DNA of 64,000 nucleotides from a bacterium. GTDB lineage: Bacteria; Krumholzibacteriota; Krumholzibacteriia; LZORAL124-64-63. Where the stretch lies: the NCBI GenBank assembly GCA_031441465.1, contig JANOEP010000009.1:122149-186148 (forward strand). The letters are read 5' to 3'. The notes under the pieces were generated by a model. The model was not told the DNA's origin. It did not search any database and worked only from the letters and a program-made list of their open reading frames with translations. The translations under genes and the position numbers were made by a program. Below are positions 684 to 32,175 of this stretch, one piece after another. How positions within the stretch are numbered: position 1 is the first letter of the stretch; every line of letters starts with the position of its first letter.

Positions 684-1073
684 CTACGCTCCCGATGACA
701 CAGGATCTTGAAAGGGCGCCGGCTCACCGTCATCGCCGAGGTTGACGTAGGTGACGTCGGCGCCGGTCACCTTCACGGCGCCGCCGTCGCGGCGCTCGGC
801 TTCGACCTCGATGCGGATGGTGATGGACGTGCGGCCGGTCCGCTCGACTTCGGTGTAGAAGCTGACCAGGTCGCCGACCTGCACGGGGGCGTGGAAGACG
901 ACTTTTTCCATGGCGACGGTCACCACGCGACGGCAGCCGTGGCGGTGGGCGGCCACGGCGCCGGCCTGGTCGATGTGGCTGAGGATGACGCCGCCGAAGA
1001 TCGTGCCGTGGGCGTTGGTGTCGCGCGGCATCATGAGCACGCGGATGGCGGGTTCGCGGCGGGTCGGGTTCAT
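684..1073 (-). CDS. acyl-CoA thioesterase (hotdog fold, YciA-like)
   Basis: MPRDTNAHGTIFGG...DQAG and F.APV.VGD motifs. Confidence 0.9.
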   Translation of the reverse strand: MNPTRREPAIRVLMMPRDTNAHGTIFGGVILSHIDQAGAVAAHRHGCRRVVTVAMEKVVFHAPVQVGDLVSFYTEVERTGRTSITIRIEVEAERRDGGAVKVTGADVTYVNLGDDGEPAPFQDPVSSGA

Positions 1074-1113
1074 GCGCTTCCTTTCGGAACGCGGCGGCGC
1101 CGCCGCGGTGACG

Positions 1114-4100
1114 TCAGCCCTCGGCGCGGGGCGCCGGCTGGGGCTTACGGCGCTCGGCGTCGGCCGCTTCGATCATCAGGTCCACGGCGCGGTCGAGCTG
1201 CGGGTCGCGGCGGTGCAGGCGATCGGCCGGGGTCAGCGCGACCGGCACGTCCGGCACGCAGCCCGCCCCGTCGCGCTTGGCCTCCTGGGGGCGGCCGTTG
1301 CGCTCGAGGCGGCGCTCGTCGCCCCAGATCCACCAGCCGCGGAAGGGCAGGCGCACGAAGCCGCGGTAGCGGTTGTCGAAGGCGCCGGTGGAGATGACGT
1401 TGCCGCCGGTCTCGGCGCCGACCACCGGTCCGCGGCCGATGGTCTGCATCGCGTGGCTGAAGATCTCGGCGTTGGAGTAGCTGCCCTCGTTGCAGATCAC
1501 GGCCACCGGCTTCGACCAGCGGGTGAAGGGCTGGCGCTCGGTCTGCGGGTAGCCGACCTCCCCGCCGCGGCTGATCGTGAACGCGTGCACCGGCTGCGTC
1601 AGGATCGTCAGCAGCAGGTCGGTGGTCCAGCCGCCGCCGTTGTCCCTCACGTCGATGACGAGCGCCTCCTTGCCGTCGGCGGCGGCGAACAGTTCCTGCT
1701 GGAAGCGCTCGACCTCGCCGAGGCCCATGCCCTGGATGTGCACGTAGCCGACGCGGCCGCCGCTGCGCTGTTCGGCGCTGCCGCGCCGCTCGCGCTCGGT
1801 CGCGAGGTACTGCAGCTGGCGCTCGTCGGCCCACTTCTGGGGCACGACCTGGAATTCGAGCTGCTCGCGCCCGCGACGCGCCGCGAGCCACAGCGGGACG
1901 CCGGCGCCGTTCTCCAGCGCGGCCTCCAGGCTCGCGTCGCGGCCGACGGGGCGGCCGTCGACGGACAGCAGCAGATCGCCCGGCTGCAGGCGGGCGCGCT
2001 CGCGGTCGCAGGGGCCGTTGCGCAGGACGCGGGCCACCTTCAGACCCTCGCCGTCGTGGGCGGGATCGAACTCCAGGCCGAGGCAGCCGTCGTCGCCGTA
2101 GTTGCCGATCGGCTCCCAGCCGGGACGGTAGCCCATGTGGCTGGCGTTCAGCTCGCCGAGCATGAGGTTCATGACGTCGCCGAAGTCCGTGTCGTGGGCC
2201 ACGCCCTGGACCCAGGCGGCGTACTTGCCGCGCAGGCGGGGCCAGTCCGCGCCGTGCATGCCGGGGTCGTAGAAGCGGTCGCGCAGGGTGCGCCAGGCTT
2301 CGTCCATGACACGCAGCCGCACGGCCGGACGGTCGATCGTCAGGCGCGCGGTGAAGCTCACGGTCTCGGTCTTGCCCCCCTCGGCCGGCGTCGTGGCCGG
2401 CTTGCCGCCCTTGAGGTAGGTGAAGGTCTTGCCCTTGGCGTCCAGGCGGAGGCGGCGGGGTTTCGCGTCGCCCTCGGTCACGGCCTGGCGGTCCTCGCCG
2501 AAGCGGTCCACCGACCAGAGGTCGCTCGCCTCGCCCCGTTGCGCCAGGAAGTAGACCCGGTCGCCGTGGGGCTCGGCGGCCACGGGCATCTCGCTGTCCG
2601 GCAGGTTCGTGAGGCGGCGGCCGCGCAGGTGGATGTCCTGGAAGTCGACGGCGACGACGACCGCGTCCTTGGCCTTTTCCTTTTCCTTGTCCTTGTCCTT
2701 GTCGCCGTCCTTCTCCTTGTCGGCGTCCTTCTTCTTGTCGTCGCGCGACTTCTGCTCGATCTCCCACTCCTCGCGCGTGCGCTCGTGGTCGGCGAGGGTG
2801 AGGTAGAGCATGTAGACGTCGTGGTCGCGGTCGCCGGGGTCGTGGGCGTGGCGCGTCGTGGACCAGAAGAGCTGGCGGCCGTCCGGCGACCAGACCGGGT
2901 TCTCGTCGTAGGCGGGATGGCGCGTGACGTTCACGGCCTCGCCCCCGTCGGCGGGCACGAGCCAGATGTCCGAGTTGTCGTCGCGATCGGCGCGCCCGAT
3001 CGCGAGCCAGCGGCCGTCGGGCGACCAGGCGAAGGAGTCCAGGTTCCAGTGGCGGGCGAGCGTCCGGTCGCCGGACCCGTCGGCCTGCATGACGTGCAGG
3101 TCGCCGAGGCCGCGCACGTAGGCGATGCGGCGGCCGTCGGGCGACCAGGCGGCGCGGCCGCAGGGCACCTCGTCATCCTGGCCGGCGCCACCGGTCAGGC
3201 GCACCAGTTCCTGGCGGCGGGCCCGGCGCGGCAGCGGCTCGCCGGAATCGCCCGAGACCAGCAGGTAGACGGCGTCCTCGCCGTCGCGGTCGCTGACCAG
3301 CAGCAGGGTGTCGGCGCCGCCGGGCCGGAACGAGGGCGCCTGCTCGAGCGACGGGCCGGGCACCGCCACGGCGGCGCGGCCGCCCTGCTGGCGGTTCAGC
3401 AGGACGATCTCGCCGGCGATCGTCAGCGCGAGTTCGTCGCCGTCGTCGGCGACGGCGAGGTCGTCGGCGTCCGCGGTCTTCGACTCGACGACCACCCGGT
3501 TCTCGATCTGGTCGGCGGCCACGCCGATCGCGAGGCGGCGGGGCTCGCCGGCGCCGGGTTCGAACACGTAGAGGTCCGTGCCGCGCTCCAGGACCAGACG
3601 GCGGCCGGCCATGCCGAGCGAGGCGGCGCGCACGCCGTCCCCCTCGAAGAAGGTCAGCTGGCGCTTGTCGGCGCCGTCGGGCCCCATGGTCCAGACGTTG
3701 GCGGTCAGGGCCGCGTCCTGGTCCGACAGCCAATAGATCCGGCCGTCGGGGGCCGTCATGGGGTTGGAGTCGTAGCCGCGGTTGGCGGTCAGGGGCGCCG
3801 GATCGCCGCCGCGCGTCCAGGTATGCAGTTCCCGCTGGTAGGTGCCGCGGTAGCGCATGCGCCCGCCGCCGGTGCTGCCCTCGGCGTAGACGAAGGTGCG
3901 GCCGTCGGCGGTGGCGACCTCGTCGGCGAAGACGTCGACGAGTCGGACCGGCGTGCCGCCGGTCACCGGCACGGCGTGGATCTGGGGCGACATCGGGTAG
4001 TCGAACAGTCGCCGCGAGGTGAAGTAGACGGTGCGGCCGTCCGGCGAGAAGGCGCGCGGGATGTCGCCGGTGCCGGCGTAGGTGAGGCGGGTCGGCGGGC

Positions 4101-4398
4101 CGCCGTCCAGGGGCATGACGAACACGTCGTCGTCGCCGAACCGGTTGGAGGCGAAGGCCAGGCTGAGGCCGTCGGGCGCGAAGACGGGCGCCGTGTCGTA
4201 GGCCTGGTGGGCGGTCAGGCGGACCGCCTCGCCGCCCTGCGCCGAAACGCGCCACAGGTCGCCCTGGAAGCCGAAGACGACCGTGGCGCCGTCGGGGCTG
4301 AGCGCCGGGCTGCGCGGCATGAACACCTCGGCCGCGCGGGCGGTCGGGGCAGCGAGAACCAGCAGGACGGCCACCGCAGCCGCATACTTCGACGTCAT
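1114..4398 (-). CDS. tricorn-like S41 peptidase (PD40 beta-propellers, PDZ, S41 catalytic domain), secreted
   Basis: ATG 4398 with GGAGG RBS and signal peptide; repeated WSPDG motifs; ELNASH, DVRDNGGG, SYSNAE (catalytic Ser). Confidence 0.88.
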   Translation of the reverse strand: MTSKYAAAVAVLLVLAAPTARAAEVFMPRSPALSPDGATVVFGFQGDLWRVSAQGGEAVRLTAHQAYDTAPVFAPDGLSLAFASNRFGDDDVFVMPLDGGPPTRLTYAGTGDIPRAFSPDGRTVYFTSRRLFDYPMSPQIHAVPVTGGTPVRLVDVFADEVATADGRTFVYAEGSTGGGRMRYRGTYQRELHTWTRGGDPAPLTANRGYDSNPMTAPDGRIYWLSDQDAALTANVWTMGPDGADKRQLTFFEGDGVRAASLGMAGRRLVLERGTDLYVFEPGAGEPRRLAIGVAADQIENRVVVESKTADADDLAVADDGDELALTIAGEIVLLNRQQGGRAAVAVPGPSLEQAPSFRPGGADTLLLVSDRDGEDAVYLLVSGDSGEPLPRRARRQELVRLTGGAGQDDEVPCGRAAWSPDGRRIAYVRGLGDLHVMQADGSGDRTLARHWNLDSFAWSPDGRWLAIGRADRDDNSDIWLVPADGGEAVNVTRHPAYDENPVWSPDGRQLFWSTTRHAHDPGDRDHDVYMLYLTLADHERTREEWEIEQKSRDDKKKDADKEKDGDKDKDKEKEKAKDAVVVAVDFQDIHLRGRRLTNLPDSEMPVAAEPHGDRVYFLAQRGEASDLWSVDRFGEDRQAVTEGDAKPRRLRLDAKGKTFTYLKGGKPATTPAEGGKTETVSFTARLTIDRPAVRLRVMDEAWRTLRDRFYDPGMHGADWPRLRGKYAAWVQGVAHDTDFGDVMNLMLGELNASHMGYRPGWEPIGNYGDDGCLGLEFDPAHDGEGLKVARVLRNGPCDRERARLQPGDLLLSVDGRPVGRDASLEAALENGAGVPLWLAARRGREQLEFQVVPQKWADERQLQYLATERERRGSAEQRSGGRVGYVHIQGMGLGEVERFQQELFAAADGKEALVIDVRDNGGGWTTDLLLTILTQPVHAFTISRGGEVGYPQTERQPFTRWSKPVAVICNEGSYSNAEIFSHAMQTIGRGPVVGAETGGNVISTGAFDNRYRGFVRLPFRGWWIWGDERRLERNGRPQEAKRDGAGCVPDVPVALTPADRLHRRDPQLDRAVDLMIEAADAERRKPQPAPRAEG

Positions 4399-4579
4399 CG
4401 ATCGCCTCCAGGAAGGGCGTGGGTTCGGCCGGAAACCGGGGCCGGCGGCGCCGGTTGCCGGGCATCGTAGCCGCGGTCCGCTCCGGAGGGCAACCTTCCG
4501 GTCGAGAAAGTTGTGGGCCGATCGCGTAAGACGCATGATGACAACGAGATGTTTCGGCGGTAAATTTCCGGCCTCCATC

Positions 4580-4610
4580 TTGACATTTCCCTGGAACGCC
4601 GTCACATTAT
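4580..4610 (+). promoter_or_regulatory. putative sigma-70 promoter for the acidic-ORF/speB operon
   Basis: TTGACA at 4580-4585, then CACATT (17-bp spacer) or CATTAT (19-bp spacer). Confidence 0.5.
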
Positions 4611-4870
4611 GGCCCTCGATTCGGCGACCCGGTCCCCCGGTGCCTGGTCGGCGCCGCCTCGCGCCATTGGCCGCGGCACCGATCCTGCATCGTGCAACGA
4701 GCGACGAGGAGTGGGCTTCGATGCCTCACCGTCACCGGCGCAGCCCCGGAGATAGCGATCCCGAGGCCAAGCCTCCGATCAAGCGCAAGCGTCTCGGGAC
4801 AGAGCGCCCGTCACGCGAGCCGGAAGTTCCGTTCTACAACCGACGCACCCCACGCGATGGGAGGGACCCG

Positions 4871-5017
4871 ATGAAGAACGACTGGAACAACGACGAGACC
4901 ATCGAACTCGAGGACGACGATCTGGAAGAGGACGACGACCTCGAAGAGGACGAGGACTTCGACGACGACGAGGACTTCGAAGAGGACGACGTCGAGGAAG
5001 CGGACGACGACAGTTGA
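4871..5017 (+). CDS. 48-aa extremely acidic small protein (possible leader peptide)
   Basis: GGGAGGG RBS then ATG; 32 of 48 residues are D/E; stop TGA overlaps the TTG start of speB. An alternative in-frame ATG lies at 4721. Confidence 0.65.
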   Translation: MKNDWNNDETIELEDDDLEEDDDLEEDEDFDDDEDFEEDDVEEADDDS

Positions 5018-5883
5018 CGTGGCCGCTGCATGACGATCCCGGGGCGTTCGGGGGCCTCCCGGAACGCCCCGTTCCGGATCACTGCCGCTTTGCGGTGCTC
5101 CCGATCCCCTACGACGGCACCTCCACGTGGCGCAAGGGCGCCGACCGCGGCCCCGACGCCCTGCTCGCGGCTTCGGCGAACATGGAACTTTACGACATCG
5201 AGACCGCCGGCGAGCCGTGGCGAGCCGGCATCGTCACGATGGCGCCGGTGCTGCACGACGGCCCGCCCGAGGGCATGGTGGCGAAGGTCCGCGCCGCGGC
5301 CGACGACCTGCTGGACCGCGGTCTCACCGTGGTCGGGCTCGGCGGCGAGCACTCCGTGAGCATCGGCCTGATCCAGGCCCACGCGGCGCGCCACCCCGGG
5401 CTGACGGTCCTGCAGTTCGACGCGCACGGCGACACCCGCGACACATACGAGGGCTCGCCCAACAACCACGCCTGCGTCATGGCGCGGGCGGCCGAAGTCG
5501 CCGACTATGTGCAGGTCGGCATCCGCAGCCTCGACGCCGCCGAGGCGCCGAAGCTCCGCCCCGGCCGCACCTTCTTCGCCCACGAGATCGGCGAAGGGTA
5601 CGATTTCATCCCGGCGGTGGTCGAACGCCTGTCCGGCCCGGTCTACGTGACCGTCGACCTGGACGTTTTCGATCCGGGGATCATGCCGTCGACCGGCACC
5701 CCCGAGCCCGGCGGCCTCTCCTACCGGCAGGTCGTCCGCACCCTGGCCGCGGTGGCGCGCAGCCGCCGCATCGTCGGCTTCGACGTGGTCGAGCTGCTGC
5801 CCGACCCCCGCAACCCCGGCCCGGATTTCCTGGCGGCGCGCCTGGCCTACCAGATCATGGCCTACCTGACCGCCCGGCAGTAA
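5014..5883 (+). CDS. speB: agmatinase (ureohydrolase family)
   Basis: GGEHS, DAHGD, DLDVFDP, TGTPEPGG and DVVE motifs; TTG start. Confidence 0.9.
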   Translation: MTWPLHDDPGAFGGLPERPVPDHCRFAVLPIPYDGTSTWRKGADRGPDALLAASANMELYDIETAGEPWRAGIVTMAPVLHDGPPEGMVAKVRAAADDLLDRGLTVVGLGGEHSVSIGLIQAHAARHPGLTVLQFDAHGDTRDTYEGSPNNHACVMARAAEVADYVQVGIRSLDAAEAPKLRPGRTFFAHEIGEGYDFIPAVVERLSGPVYVTVDLDVFDPGIMPSTGTPEPGGLSYRQVVRTLAAVARSRRIVGFDVVELLPDPRNPGPDFLAARLAYQIMAYLTARQ

Positions 5884-5893
5884 GGAGTCCCCG

Positions 5894-6907
5894 ATGCAGA
5901 AGAGCGACCTCCTCAAGGACGTGGTCCGCCACGTCGACGTCACGGCCTTCGACGCGCGGCCGCTGATCGACTCCTACCGGGACATGGCCTTCCAGGCCCG
6001 CAACCTGGCCACCGCGGCGGGGATCCTGCACCGCATGGAATCCGACCACGGCTGCGGCGTCATCCTGACGCTCGCCGGATCGCTGATCAGCGCCGGCCTG
6101 AAGGACGCGATCGCCCTGATGATCGAGAACGACATGGTGGACGCCGTGGTCTCCACGGGCGCCAACATCGTCGACCAGGACTTCTTCGAGGCGCTCGGCT
6201 TCCGCCACTACAAGGGCACGCCCTTCATCGACGACCAGATGCTGCGCGGCCTGGCCATCGACCGCATCTACGACACGTACATCGACGAGGACGAGCTGCG
6301 CATCTGCGACATGACCGTCGCCGAGATCGCCGACGGCCTCGAGCCGCGGCCCTACTCGTCGCGCGAGTTCGTCGCGGCGATGGGCGCCTTCATCGAGGCC
6401 AGGGGCCTGAAGTCCGACCACTCGATCGTCCACGCCGCCTGGCGCAAGGGCGTACCGATCTTTTGCCCCGCCTTCAGCGACTGCTCGGCCGGCTTCGGCC
6501 TGGTGCACCACCAGTGGCACCGCGAGAAGTACCTGACCATCGACTCCGTGGCCGACTTCCGCGAGCTGACGCAGATCAAGCTCGAGGTCGGCGAGACCGG
6601 CCTGCTGATGCTCGGCGGCGGCGTGCCCAAGAACTTCACCCAGGACGTGGTGGTGGCCACCGAGATCCTGGGCCGCGAGCAGCCGATGCACAAATACGCC
6701 ATCCAGCTGACCGTCGCCGACGAGCGCGACGGCGCCCTCTCGGGCTCGACCCTGAAGGAGGCCTGCTCCTGGGGCAAGGTGGACACGGTGTACGAGCAGA
6801 TGGTCTACGGCGAGGCGACCGTCACCTTCCCCCTGCTGGTCAGCGACGCCTGGCACCGGGGCGGCTGGCGCGGGCGGCCCTCGCGACGGTTCAACGACCT
6901 CTTCTAG
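5894..6907 (+). CDS. deoxyhypusine synthase family protein (likely homospermidine synthase-type)
   Basis: STGAN, IDRIYD, GGGVPKNF, DGALSGS and EACSWGK (active-site Lys); AGGAG RBS. Confidence 0.9.
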   Translation: MQKSDLLKDVVRHVDVTAFDARPLIDSYRDMAFQARNLATAAGILHRMESDHGCGVILTLAGSLISAGLKDAIALMIENDMVDAVVSTGANIVDQDFFEALGFRHYKGTPFIDDQMLRGLAIDRIYDTYIDEDELRICDMTVAEIADGLEPRPYSSREFVAAMGAFIEARGLKSDHSIVHAAWRKGVPIFCPAFSDCSAGFGLVHHQWHREKYLTIDSVADFRELTQIKLEVGETGLLMLGGGVPKNFTQDVVVATEILGREQPMHKYAIQLTVADERDGALSGSTLKEACSWGKVDTVYEQMVYGEATVTFPLLVSDAWHRGGWRGRPSRRFNDLF

Positions 6908-6923
6908 CACCGGGAAGGCGGCG

Positions 6924-7652
6924 ATGGGCGCGACCCAGGACAGCTTCGACCTGCAGCCGGGACGCATCCTGGCGCGCAAGTTCGAGGTGATCCGCCGCCT
7001 GGGCGCCGGCTGGGAGGGCGAGGTCTACCTGGTGCGCGAGAGCGTCACCGGCATCGACCGCGCCGCCAAGCTCTTCTTCCCGGTGCGCAACCCCCGCAAC
7101 CGCACCCTCAACGAGTACGCCCGGCGCCTGCACCGGCTGCGCGAATGCCCCATCCTGGTCAACTACGTCACCCAGGAGACCATCCGCGTGCGCGGCGACG
7201 ACGTCGCGGTGCTGATCTCGGAGTTCGTGGACGGGGAGCTGCTCTGGGAGTTCCTGGCGCGCCAGCCCGGCCACCGCCTCGACGCGTTCCAGGGTCTGCA
7301 CCTGCTGCACGCGCTGGCCGTCGGCGTCTCGGCGATCCACGCGAGCAACGACTACCACGGCGACCTGCACGCCTCGAACGTCATCGTCAAGCGGCTGGGC
7401 CTAGGCTTCGAGGTCCGCCTGCTCGACCTGCACCGCTGGCCGGGTTCGCGGACCTCGAACATCCAGGAAGACGTCTGCAATCTCGTGCGCCTGCTCTACG
7501 ACGTGCTGGGCGGCCGGCGCACCTACGCGAAGCACCCGGCCGAGATCAAGGGCGTGCTGCGGGGGTTGCGCCGCTCGCTGATCCTCGAGAGCTTCCGCAC
7601 CGCCGGCGACCTCGCCCTGCACCTCGAGACCATGCCCTGGGAATCCCGATGA
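6924..7652 (+). CDS. stand-alone Ser/Thr protein kinase-like protein
   Basis: LGAGWEGEVY Gly-loop, AAK, catalytic loop HGDLHASN, DLH in the DFG position. Confidence 0.8.
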   Translation: MGATQDSFDLQPGRILARKFEVIRRLGAGWEGEVYLVRESVTGIDRAAKLFFPVRNPRNRTLNEYARRLHRLRECPILVNYVTQETIRVRGDDVAVLISEFVDGELLWEFLARQPGHRLDAFQGLHLLHALAVGVSAIHASNDYHGDLHASNVIVKRLGLGFEVRLLDLHRWPGSRTSNIQEDVCNLVRLLYDVLGGRRTYAKHPAEIKGVLRGLRRSLILESFRTAGDLALHLETMPWESR

Positions 7653-7671
7653 ACCGGCGCGGGGTCGCGGC

Positions 7672-8376
7672 GTGACGCCCCTGGAATTCGAACCTGCCGG
7701 CTTCGACATCCTCCACGAATGGGGCCCTTGCCTGGTCGTCGGCAAGCCGCCGGGGCTGTTGACACAGGCGCCACCGGGCATCGACAGCCTGGAGGCGCGC
7801 GTGCGCGTGTTCCTGCAGGCGCGGGACGGCCGGGCCGCGGGCGCCCACCTCGGCGTGGTGCACCGCCTGGATCGTCCGGCGAGCGGCGCGCTGCTGCTGG
7901 GCCTGACACCCGCGGCCACGCGCAAGCTGAGCCGGCAGATCGAGCAGCGACAGGTGCGCAAGCTCTACTGGGCGCTGGTGGGCGGGGCGCCGGCGGCGGG
8001 CGCCTGGTCGGACCACGTGCGCAAGGTGCCGGACGAGCCCCGCGCCGAGATCGTCCCGGTGGAACATCCGGACGCTCGCTTGGCGACGCTGCACTGCCGC
8101 ATCCTGCAGTCGGGGCCGGGGTTCACCTGGCTCGAGATCGAACTGGAGACGGGGCGCACGCACCAGATCCGGCTGCAGGCGGCGAGCCGGGGGCATCCGG
8201 TGCTGGGCGACGCGCAGTACGGCTCGGCCGTTCCCTTCGGGGAGCAGCCTGCGGATCCGCGCCTGCGGGCGATCGCGCTGCACGCGCGATTGCTCGGCTT
8301 CCGGGATCCGACCACGGGGGAGGATGTGGAGGTCGTTGCGGCGCCGCCGGCGGCTTGGGGCGGGTTTCTTGCTTGA
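7672..8376 (+). CDS. RluA-family RNA pseudouridine synthase
   Basis: KPPGLL, HRLDRPASG and GRTHQIR motifs. Confidence 0.92.
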   Translation: MTPLEFEPAGFDILHEWGPCLVVGKPPGLLTQAPPGIDSLEARVRVFLQARDGRAAGAHLGVVHRLDRPASGALLLGLTPAATRKLSRQIEQRQVRKLYWALVGGAPAAGAWSDHVRKVPDEPRAEIVPVEHPDARLATLHCRILQSGPGFTWLEIELETGRTHQIRLQAASRGHPVLGDAQYGSAVPFGEQPADPRLRAIALHARLLGFRDPTTGEDVEVVAAPPAAWGGFLA

Positions 8377-8380
8377 TCGA

Positions 8381-8425
8381 AAAAGAAGAAGTCCGGGCGG
8401 CCGCGGGGCGCCCGGACTTCTTCGA
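8381..8425. terminator. bidirectional intrinsic terminator
   Basis: GAAGAAGTCCGGGCG / CGCCCGGACTTCTTC 15-bp inverted repeat between convergent genes. Confidence 0.8.
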
Positions 8426-8439
8426 CTCGTCCCGCGGCT

Positions 8440-9192
8440 CTAGCGGCCGCCCGCCACCTTCAGCTGGGTGTCGAAGACCTTGCGCCGCGATTTGGCGAGG
8501 TCGACTTCCTTGGCCGACAGGTCCTTGAGGCGGTCCGCTTCCCGGATGCGGGCGTCGAGAGTCTGGCCCTCGTACTGCCGGATCTCGAGTTCGGCGGCCT
8601 GGAGCTGGGTCATCAGGGTCGCCGAGAGGGTCTGCAGCAGCAGCGCGTTGCGCTCGTTCCGCTTGGCGGCCAGCTTCATCTCCTCCTCGCAGGCCCGGGC
8701 CGACGCCGTCGCGAGTTCCACCAGCGCCTTGGCGTGGTCGACTTCCCGCGCGCGCAAGTCGGCGCGCCGCTCCAGGAGCTGCTTCTCCAGCTCGGCCTTC
8801 TTCTTCTGCCCTTCGAGGTCGAGCTTGCGGATCTCGTCCTTCTCCTTCTTGGCCAGATCGAGCCGGCTCTTGACGGCGTCGAGTTCGCTCTGCTTCAGGC
8901 GGATGCGCATCTCGGAGCGGGCCTTCATCGCCATCGCCCGCTGCAGGTGCATCTCGCCCTCGGCGCGCTGGGTCTGGGCCGCGCTCATGTCGGACTGGAT
9001 CTCGGAGATGTCGCGCAGCGCGACCAGCGCGAGCAGCGAGTCGGCGGCCGCATCGAACGCCTGCAGCGTGGGCAGCGGGGCGGGCGCGGACGACAGCGCG
9101 CCCTGCGCGACGGCGCCACCGGCGGCGCCGGCCACGACGGCCGCCAGCATGAACAGCGACAGGGATCGTCTCGAATTCCAAGCAACCAACAT
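8440..9192 (-). CDS. exported coiled-coil hypothetical protein
   Basis: ATG 9192 with GGAGG; hydrophobic N-terminus, then a long A/E/K/L/R helical region. Confidence 0.65.
   Translation of the reverse strand: MLVAWNSRRSLSLFMLAAVVAGAAGGAVAQGALSSAPAPLPTLQAFDAAADSLLALVALRDISEIQSDMSAAQTQRAEGEMHLQRAMAMKARSEMRIRLKQSELDAVKSRLDLAKKEKDEIRKLDLEGQKKKAELEKQLLERRADLRAREVDHAKALVELATASARACEEEMKLAAKRNERNALLLQTLSATLMTQLQAAELEIRQYEGQTLDARIREADRLKDLSAKEVDLAKSRRKVFDTQLKVAGGR

Positions 9193-30270: not shown

Positions 30271-32175
<1,905 letters not shown>

Follow-up and report, generated by a model that had tools for sequence, protein, structure and literature searches.

The stretch of DNA analysed here (the window) comprises 64,000 nucleotides (nt) of a Krumholzibacteriota genome (GenBank assembly GCA_031441465.1, contig JANOEP010000009.1, positions 122,149 to 186,148 of the forward strand), with a G+C content of about 70%. 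It contains an operon made up of a small gene for a protein of 98 amino acids (aa) with a basic head and an extremely acidic tail, speB for an agmatinase-family ureohydrolase, and speY for a deoxyhypusine-synthase-like enzyme (Table 1). Both enzymes belong, as ordinary representatives, to a pathway described only recently, and the small protein belongs to an undescribed, lineage-restricted family. Judged from gene context, its functional association with SpeB is clear.

An earlier note on this DNA had placed an acidic reading frame at the head of a polyamine operon, and the operon is upheld: speB passes the TIGR01230 model, and the gene behind it passes NF002699, whose model name is “1,9-bis(guanidino)-5-aza-nonane synthase” (SpeY). 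SpeY joins two agmatines, and the ureohydrolase strips the guanidino groups, which constitutes the agmatine-dependent homospermidine route (PMC13625781). By these model matches, the order small gene–speB–speY in the window represents this route. The family membership of SpeB is clear; its substrate may be agmatine or bis-guanidino-homospermidine. Both enzymes are acidic, with isoelectric points of 4.6-5.6 for SpeB and 4.9-6.2 for SpeY, and SpeB carries a net charge of -8 to -22.

Extent and design of the small protein

The acidic stretch had first been described as a self-contained open reading frame (ORF) of 48 codons. This frame is present on the plus strand at 4871..5017, its translation is identical to the one noted, and 32 of its 48 residues are aspartate or glutamate (D/E). 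The features reported around it are likewise found: the ribosome-binding site is GGGAGGGA at 4859-4866, 4 nt before ATG 4871 and with its GGAGG core 6 nt before it; the degenerate 18-nt repeat is recovered by Tandem Repeats Finder (TRF) and sets a hydrophobic residue at about every sixth position of the tail; and the TGA stop overlaps the weak TTG start of speB. SpeB orthologues of other genera begin at the residue homologous to this TTG at 5014. The boundary of the frame was not borne out. Upstream the frame stays open to 4283 and holds an in-frame ATG at 4721, from which 98 residues are encoded.

The 48-codon frame is the C-terminal half of a longer gene because the frame is open, ATG 4721 has its own Shine-Dalgarno (SD) motif, the head is conserved, and public gene calls give the long form. 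In each of the five other genomes of the genus, GAGGAG likewise precedes the homologous ATG, and public gene calls for the genus are 97-98 aa long (P0005, P0017, P0018). Within the genus, variable sites in the head fall at codon positions 3, 1 and 2 in numbers of 10, 5 and 5, which agrees with coding, and the ratio of nonsynonymous to synonymous change (dN/dS) in the head is about 0.4 between G000 and the other genomes, both values coming from a small data set. The 50 additional N-terminal residues hold a motif conserved in relatives of other genera. Genera whose SpeB is only 62-76% identical carry, in the same place upstream of speB, an ORF for 82-103 aa with the same two-part design, and an SD-like motif precedes the first ATG of each. 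The internal ATG (Met) at 4871 and GGGAGGGA are conserved within the genus only; a short product from this start may be made in addition to the long form, given that acid-only ORFs occupy this place in G024, G095 and G136.

The head comprises the first 56 residues, with 15 lysines or arginines (K/R) and 9 D/E, and is of mixed charge and net basic. The tail comprises 42 residues, of which 31 are D/E, none K/R and 7 hydrophobic, with a net charge of -31 and a hydrophobic or aromatic residue at about every sixth position. The acidity of this stretch is far beyond chance: in a six-frame scan of 3,492,914 bases it is the most acidic stretch that the genome can encode, with 31/40 D/E against 21/40 in the runner-up window.

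In an alignment of 24 sequences, conservation reaches at least 90% at K17, P18 and R22. These belong to the near-invariant K-P-x-x-[KR]-R, the only position-specific conserved motif, which lies in the head some 15-20 residues into the protein. The alignments further place an aromatic residue where head and tail meet and show an ending of the form D-F-[ED] ... [DE]-D-[WFVIL]. Tails in the family measure 32-55 residues, carry net charges of -15 to -36 and have evenly spaced hydrophobic or aromatic residues, and the window protein agrees in all of these; whole-protein net charges run from -14 to -29. Tail length varies by repeat units with the frame preserved, for example by 6 codons (exactly 18 nt) between G002 and the shorter G005. 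As read from these comparisons, it is charge and the spaced hydrophobic residues that are conserved in the tail, not its sequence. The D:E ratio ranges from 13:13 to 29:3 across genera and the number of SD-like motifs within the tail from 0 to 9; because of this, selection appears to act on charge and not on RNA motifs. A role of the tail as a purine-rich, SD-like standby site in the RNA was rejected on the same counts. At two loci, L126 (G043) and L127 (G129), the last ~33 nt including the stop (...DDWDKDD-stop) are tandemly repeated, in at least 3 copies and in 2 copies, respectively; read-through of the stop there would append another acidic unit.

The 98-aa protein is predicted to be fully disordered. 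AlphaFold2 (AF2), run with a 24-row alignment, gave a mean predicted local distance difference test (pLDDT) score of 61.9, a predicted template modelling (pTM) score of 0.16 and no secondary structure; the block of highest confidence is residues 11-20 (mean pLDDT 73), which covers the head motif. It matches no model in Pfam, NCBIfam or PHROGs, and among PDB sequences no match reached a meaningful level. A profile search of 1.84 billion cluster representatives returned 12 proteins at E up to 0.001, all of 90-109 aa and of the same design, and a word-indexed search of 5.8 billion proteins returned 24 family members of 86-115 aa, unnamed or called “hypothetical protein”, none with a Pfam domain. 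No longer fused form was found in the search, which is weak evidence. Several candidate likenesses were set aside: ESM Atlas look-alikes (best score 0.78, unnamed clusters of 69-76 aa) are below a meaningful level, a PDB profile match to a mycobacterial sigma factor (E = 0.008) falls in its low-complexity N-terminus and is compositional, and a PHROGs match at E = 0.055 to an SSB family came from one relative only. In two family members from short public contigs, P0030 (112 aa) and P0034 (115 aa), the usual N-terminus is replaced by the start of a response-regulator receiver domain, which runs up to a point shortly ahead of the K-P motif; the match to PF00072 covers its first 32-33 domain positions with E = 0.0068 and 0.00078, below the cut-off. 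This segment may be an artefact of gene calling or assembly, or a hint at the origin of the head.

Table 1. Positions of the small gene, the genes that follow it and associated signals in the window
Feature	Position	Strand	Basis or remark
Promoter-like site, ATGACA, 17 nt, TAAATT	4538..4566	+	divergent protease/operon intergenic region; consensus match only
SD-like GAGGAG	4706..4711	+	9 nt before ATG 4721
Gene for 98-aa basic-head/acidic-tail protein, predicted disordered; first cistron of operon	4721..5017	+	open in-frame ATG; orthologues 82-103 aa
Head motif K-P-x-x-[KR]-R-[KR], here KPPIKRKR	4769..4792	+	codons 17-24
Acidic tail ORF, 48 codons	4871..5017	+	32/48 D/E, net charge about -31; in-frame internal ATG after GGGAGGGA (4859-4866)
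18-nt (6-codon) tandem repeat building the tail	4910..5011	+	TRF: period 18, 5.7 copies, 82% matches
TTGA stop/start overlap, small gene to speB	5014..5017	+	TGA 5015-5017 over TTG 5014-5016
speB, agmatinase-family ureohydrolase, 289 aa	5014..5883	+	PF00491 9.5e-63; TIGR01230 196.1 bits vs cut-off 174.3
speY, deoxyhypusine-synthase-like agmatine homocoupling enzyme, 337 aa	5894..6907	+	PF01916 1.1e-95; NF002699 560.2 bits vs cut-off 500

Distribution and arrangement in relatives

The earlier note had proposed a check for acidic ORFs upstream of speB in related genomes, and such ORFs are found across at least 14 genera, with design, motif and position kept down to a SpeB identity of 62%. The phylum was sampled by 201 genomes: G000, 86 others of the window's family and 114 of eight other families. 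The profile of the small protein matched 33 of them, namely G000, 31 of the 86 others of its own family and 1 of the 114 elsewhere (a weak match, E = 2.2e-4), with one match per genome. Within the searched range, as far as profile and sequence matches reach, the protein is restricted almost entirely to one family of Candidatus Krumholzibacteriia. A survey from the side of SpeY gave a similar outline. Among 80 SpeY loci across bacteria and archaea, 5 have a nearby acidic ORF (at least 18 D/E in 30 residues) and 75 do not; the five are among the closest relatives of the window SpeY (75-82% identical), and none of the loci titled as other phyla has an acidic ORF at this threshold. The closest SpeY loci among named genomes carry the title Candidatus Krumholzibacteriia.

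Within the family, the small protein follows SpeB. Among 91 genomes, 34 have the small protein, 42 a SpeB orthologue and 34 SpeY. All 34 genomes with the small protein are among the 42 with SpeB, and none of the 49 SpeB-negative genomes (0/49) has it. Eight SpeB-positive genomes were missed by the profile, and six of these show an acidic ORF upstream of speB when read by eye: full-length in G055, G201 and G112, and acid-only, with 53-65 codons in the same place, in G024, G095 and G136. Of the remaining two, G191 is cut by a contig end, and G126 has only a 45%-identical paralogue and no acidic ORF. The genomes are related metagenome-assembled genomes (MAGs), and the co-occurrence counts therefore describe a clade and not independent trials. 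Four genomes, G107, G021, G023 and G101 (94, 88, 96 and 97% complete), hold the small gene and speB between unrelated genes and have no PF01916 gene anywhere; the partner is thus SpeB, and not SpeY or homospermidine as such.

The small gene adjoins speB at all 30 loci returned for it; at 29 of them it directly precedes speB on the same strand, and at 1 it follows. A stop/start overlap (ATGA, GTGA or TTGA) joins the two genes in 14 of the 30 loci, from 8 genera, as read by eye; in two further loci the stop of the small gene lies within 12 nt of the speB start, and in four genera a spacer of ~37-120 nt separates them. The order in G010 is dhs-speB-small, with the small gene as last cistron, preceded by its own SD motif and followed by a GC-rich hairpin. 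In G017 an AdoMetDC-fold gene, speB and speY stand together without the small gene, and a member of the family stands alone on another contig. G136 has two related genes (L150 and L151, G136:C7), an acid-only ORF overlapping speB and, 76 kb away between unrelated genes, a full-length copy with head and tail. No ureohydrolase gene adjoins the stand-alone copies of G017 and G136. The last-cistron form and the two stand-alone copies support an action in trans.

Some further observations concern single loci. Behind the stand-alone member of G017 (L145, G017:C10, 3425-4363, minus strand) comes a SET-domain gene of the same orientation (PF00856, 1e-11), in this one genome only; the neighbour may be coincidental, and the head does carry a near-invariant lysine. 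In L008 (G024, 820-1486) an acid-only ORF of 61 codons stands mid-operon, between speB and an AdoMetDC-fold gene (PF02675, 1.1e-25), which may code for an arginine decarboxylase by analogy with PMC13625781. At the acid-only loci L008, L140 and L032 no K-P motif was found upstream in any frame, and a frameshifted, hidden head in these short forms was rejected on this result.

Leader, transcripts and neighbouring genes

Upstream of the small gene, the promoter-like site at 4538..4566 is the sole sigma-70-like match in 4300-8600, where 0.1 would be expected from shuffles; a second TTGACA, seen by eye, lies at 4581-4586. The 5' leader (4606-4740) shows no unusual folding (z = -0.10) and matches no Rfam family, its one sub-threshold match scoring 23.6 bits vs 50. 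Further downstream, a strong GC hairpin lies at ~5035-5081 on the plus strand, in the 5' end of speB and ~20 nt past the start codon, with a stem of ~15 pairs around GGGGCGTTC...GAACGCCCC; the fold of 4960-5090 has z = -2.45, and 3/200 shuffles were as stable. From the printed junctions of other genera, which are without the same long stem, this hairpin looks genus-specific.

Four metatranscriptome runs from RNA libraries contain contigs of relatives, about 89-95% alike. Contig X17 spans 4698-5034, and X16 (4958-5206) and X18 (4861-5103) bridge the junction of the small gene and speB. Such contigs give no start, strand or level, and RNA libraries can contain DNA; they are compatible with co-transcription of the two genes and say nothing beyond that. 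Numerous short matches at 4927-4988 come from other organisms and reflect the GAC-rich repeat, and stretches without coverage carry no information either way.

The genes on either side of the operon are shared within the genus only. They are a kinase-like and a pseudouridine-synthase gene downstream and a tricorn-like protease gene upstream, and because the kinase-like and protease genes are kept only within the genus, the conserved unit is taken to be small-speB(-speY). The kinase-like ORF (242 aa, 6924-7652, plus strand) comes right after speY and has weak matches to Pkinase, Kdo and Bud32-type models. The protease (1163 aa, 1114-4605, minus strand) has PD40 repeats and Tricorn C1, PDZ and Peptidase_S41 domains and is divergent from the operon; a frame of 1186 aa on the plus strand (910-4470) is the shadow of this gene. 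A SpeA-like ornithine/arginine decarboxylase of the alanine-racemase fold lies at 31000-32100 on the minus strand (PF02784 1.1e-39, open frame 663 aa). Agmatine probably comes from this enzyme, whose gene stands ~26 kb away from the operon and outside it; searches of this genome found neither an AdoMetDC-fold nor a pyruvoyl-type decarboxylase.

Possible functions and their meaning

The reading favoured here, to which a probability of about 0.4 is given, is that the small protein is a trans-acting accessory of SpeB, a polyanion that binds or buffers polycations. The protein would be made in step with SpeB, from the same message and often by translational coupling. Its tail would offer many low-affinity sites, each combining carboxylates with an aromatic residue, for putrescine or homospermidine released by SpeB, or for guanidino precursors, and would buffer these cations or hand them on as they are produced. 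More speculatively, the basic head might compete with polyamines for the tail or act as a tether, and an occupied tail might free the head for another partner (RNA or acidic enzymes), so that the protein would work as a charge-switch read-out of the free polycation pool. Known polyamine-binding sites combine carboxylates with aromatic residues, and it is because the tail has the same combination that a polycation binder is favoured. Since SpeB and SpeY are acidic themselves, the tail is more likely to bind cations than either enzyme, and electrostatic binding of the tail to SpeB or SpeY was judged unlikely for this reason. Structure prediction for a complex of the three proteins, each supplied as an alignment, scored 0.00 in both runs and weighs neither for nor against binding. 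Published work describes polyamines as bulk cations that need to be balanced (PMC12421838), and a preprint reports an action of polyamines on disordered proteins (10.1101/2024.05.10.593468).

Several points weigh against a trans-acting polycation binder. Its mechanism is drawn from composition and gene context, and the compared genomes are related MAGs. Buffering of polyamines at millimolar levels would need a very abundant protein. The near-constant site directly upstream of speB, the frequent 4-nt overlaps and the acid-only ORF that G136 keeps at speB despite its full-length copy elsewhere all point to a component acting in cis or during translation, for which a trans model has no need. Moreover, the head is absent in three genera, so a switch based on the head is not universal.

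A rival idea is that of a translational sensor in cis, in which the D/E run destabilizes ribosomes, more so at low Mg2+ or polyamine, and the number of ribosomes reaching the overlap sets the translation of speB. The peptide would then be a by-product or have a second role, and the idea is compatible with the trans-acting polyanion favoured above. Poly-acidic nascent chains are described as causing premature termination that worsens at low Mg2+ (PMC11162784, PMC12421838), and polyamines as substituting for Mg2+ (PMC12421838). The stop/start overlap with a weak TTG here and overlaps in 14 of the 30 loci fit such a sensor, as do the acid-only ORFs of G024, G095 and G136, which open directly with the D/E run just before speB, and the retention of one of them in G136 next to a full-length gene elsewhere. 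However, simple coupling gives the wrong homeostatic sign, with few cations leading to less SpeB. The gene stands downstream of speB in G010 and alone in G017, spacers of 37-120 nt occur in four genera, and ribosome drop-off requires neither the conserved head motif nor the spaced aromatics. A nascent chain of ~50 residues in the tunnel is said to counteract destabilization (Chadani 2021, as cited in PMC12421838), and the leader has neither an attenuator-like structure (z = -0.10) nor an Rfam match. On balance, the cis sensor is considered unlikely to be the whole story. Among the readings offered in the earlier note, the polyamine-binding peptide is the one preferred here; the translational switch by a 48-aa upstream ORF does not hold as stated for a 98-aa protein with a conserved head and with last-cistron (G010) and stand-alone (G017, G136) forms; a pure leader-peptide role is unlikely because of these occurrences and those without speY.

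A different role in trans would be that of an accessory specific to SpeB, either a reservoir or chaperone of divalent metal for its binuclear site or an antizyme-like regulator that presents the Arg/Lys head as a pseudo-substrate. A different hydrolase of the arginase family receives its metal from dedicated delivery proteins with genes close by, and the strict tie to SpeB, not to SpeY or the whole pathway, together with production by translational coupling, would suit a helper of this kind. An acidic SpeB (net -8 to -22) could be bound by the basic head, and the motif is guanidino-rich, as are SpeB substrates. Yet there is no similarity to a described metallochaperone or regulator in Pfam, NCBIfam, PHROGs or PDB sequences, the protein lacks clusters of His or Cys, three genera keep the tail without the head, and the stand-alone copies in G017 and G136 adjoin no ureohydrolase, all of which leaves this role rather improbable. 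Still less can be said for the acidic 48-aa peptide from 4871 as the functional product, with the upstream 50 codons as untranslated leader: the SD-like GGGAGGGA, conserved in the genus, and the acid-only products of three other genera favour it, but the family head motif lies in frame at codons 17-24 of the long form, ATG 4721 has its own SD, the head shows third-position enrichment (10 vs 5 and 5) with a dN/dS of about 0.4, and gene calls in the genus are 97-98 aa. That there is no gene at all, only a frame left open by chance between genes in repeat-rich, high-GC DNA, has next to no probability. High-GC genomes are rich in long spurious frames, such as the 1186-aa frame opposite the protease, but at least 14 genera share the design, the motif and the position, and repeat changes keep the frame; the idea is already refuted by this conservation in relatives.

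Comparison with known systems places the protein near several of them. The clusters for SpeB- and SpeY (CdmS)-based, agmatine-dependent homospermidine synthesis (Li et al. 2026, PMC13625781) have the same two enzymes as the operon downstream of the small gene. The texts of PMC13625781 and PMC10981699, figures and supplements aside, contain 0 occurrences of “acidic” and no small ORF in the clusters, and the earlier note's statement that no such arrangement has been described stands, in that literature searches turned up none. SpeFL, MgtL and the eukaryotic AdoMetDC upstream ORF are described as similar in having a small ORF before a polyamine gene and coupling to the next start, and the acidic run in the window has the ribosome-destabilizing composition of MgtL-type leaders. 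Peptides of the SpeFL/MgtL kind, as described, are about 17-34 aa long, in contrast to 98 aa with a conserved head motif and a composition-defined tail here; a place directly upstream and an action in cis alone define that kind, whereas the present family also occurs downstream (G010) and alone (G017, G136). Neither an alternative leader structure nor sequence similarity to them was found in the window.

Proteins such as HMGB1, Hfq with its C-terminal domain and others with D/E repeats (PMC10250230, PMC5606850, PMC10853541) are described as joining a basic part and a D/E tail in one chain, as here, and by analogy an intramolecular electrostatic competition is plausible. Those proteins have a folded nucleic-acid-binding domain, whereas the small protein has no Pfam or NCBIfam domain and no secondary structure in the AF2 model; they are tied to nucleic acids, and the small protein is tied to an enzyme gene.

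Ornithine decarboxylase antizyme is a small protein for polyamine homeostasis that is encoded or regulated with its pathway. The likeness is one of concept only, the present gene having no homology to it, no frameshift site and no folded domain. The small protein thus resembles leader peptides by position, autoinhibited proteins with acidic tails by charge layout and antizyme by concept, and is homologous to none of them.

Polyamines are the main organic polycations of cells, and apart from transport, acetylation and a few leader peptides the ways in which bacteria balance the free pool are, to our knowledge, poorly understood. In the present lineage a gene for a dedicated polyanion has entered a biosynthetic operon and has stayed next to the gene of the last enzyme in at least 14 genera. 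A tentative and rather doubtful extension of the favoured reading is that this is a new kind of bacterial polyamine-homeostasis factor, a disordered polyanion made in fixed ratio with a polyamine-releasing enzyme, which would buffer or read free polycations through competition of head and polyamines for the tail. Such a factor would parallel antizyme but work as a charge switch, and its D/E run might also serve as a cation-sensitive translational gate for speB. The organisms are uncultured, yet either outcome is accessible with recombinant material. If the protein gates speB by ribosome destabilization, a mechanism of Mg2+ transport would be found to reach polyamine synthesis as well. If polyamine binding or sensing is its role, it would be the first such protein from a bacterium and would offer a simple natural model for interactions between polyamines and disordered proteins.

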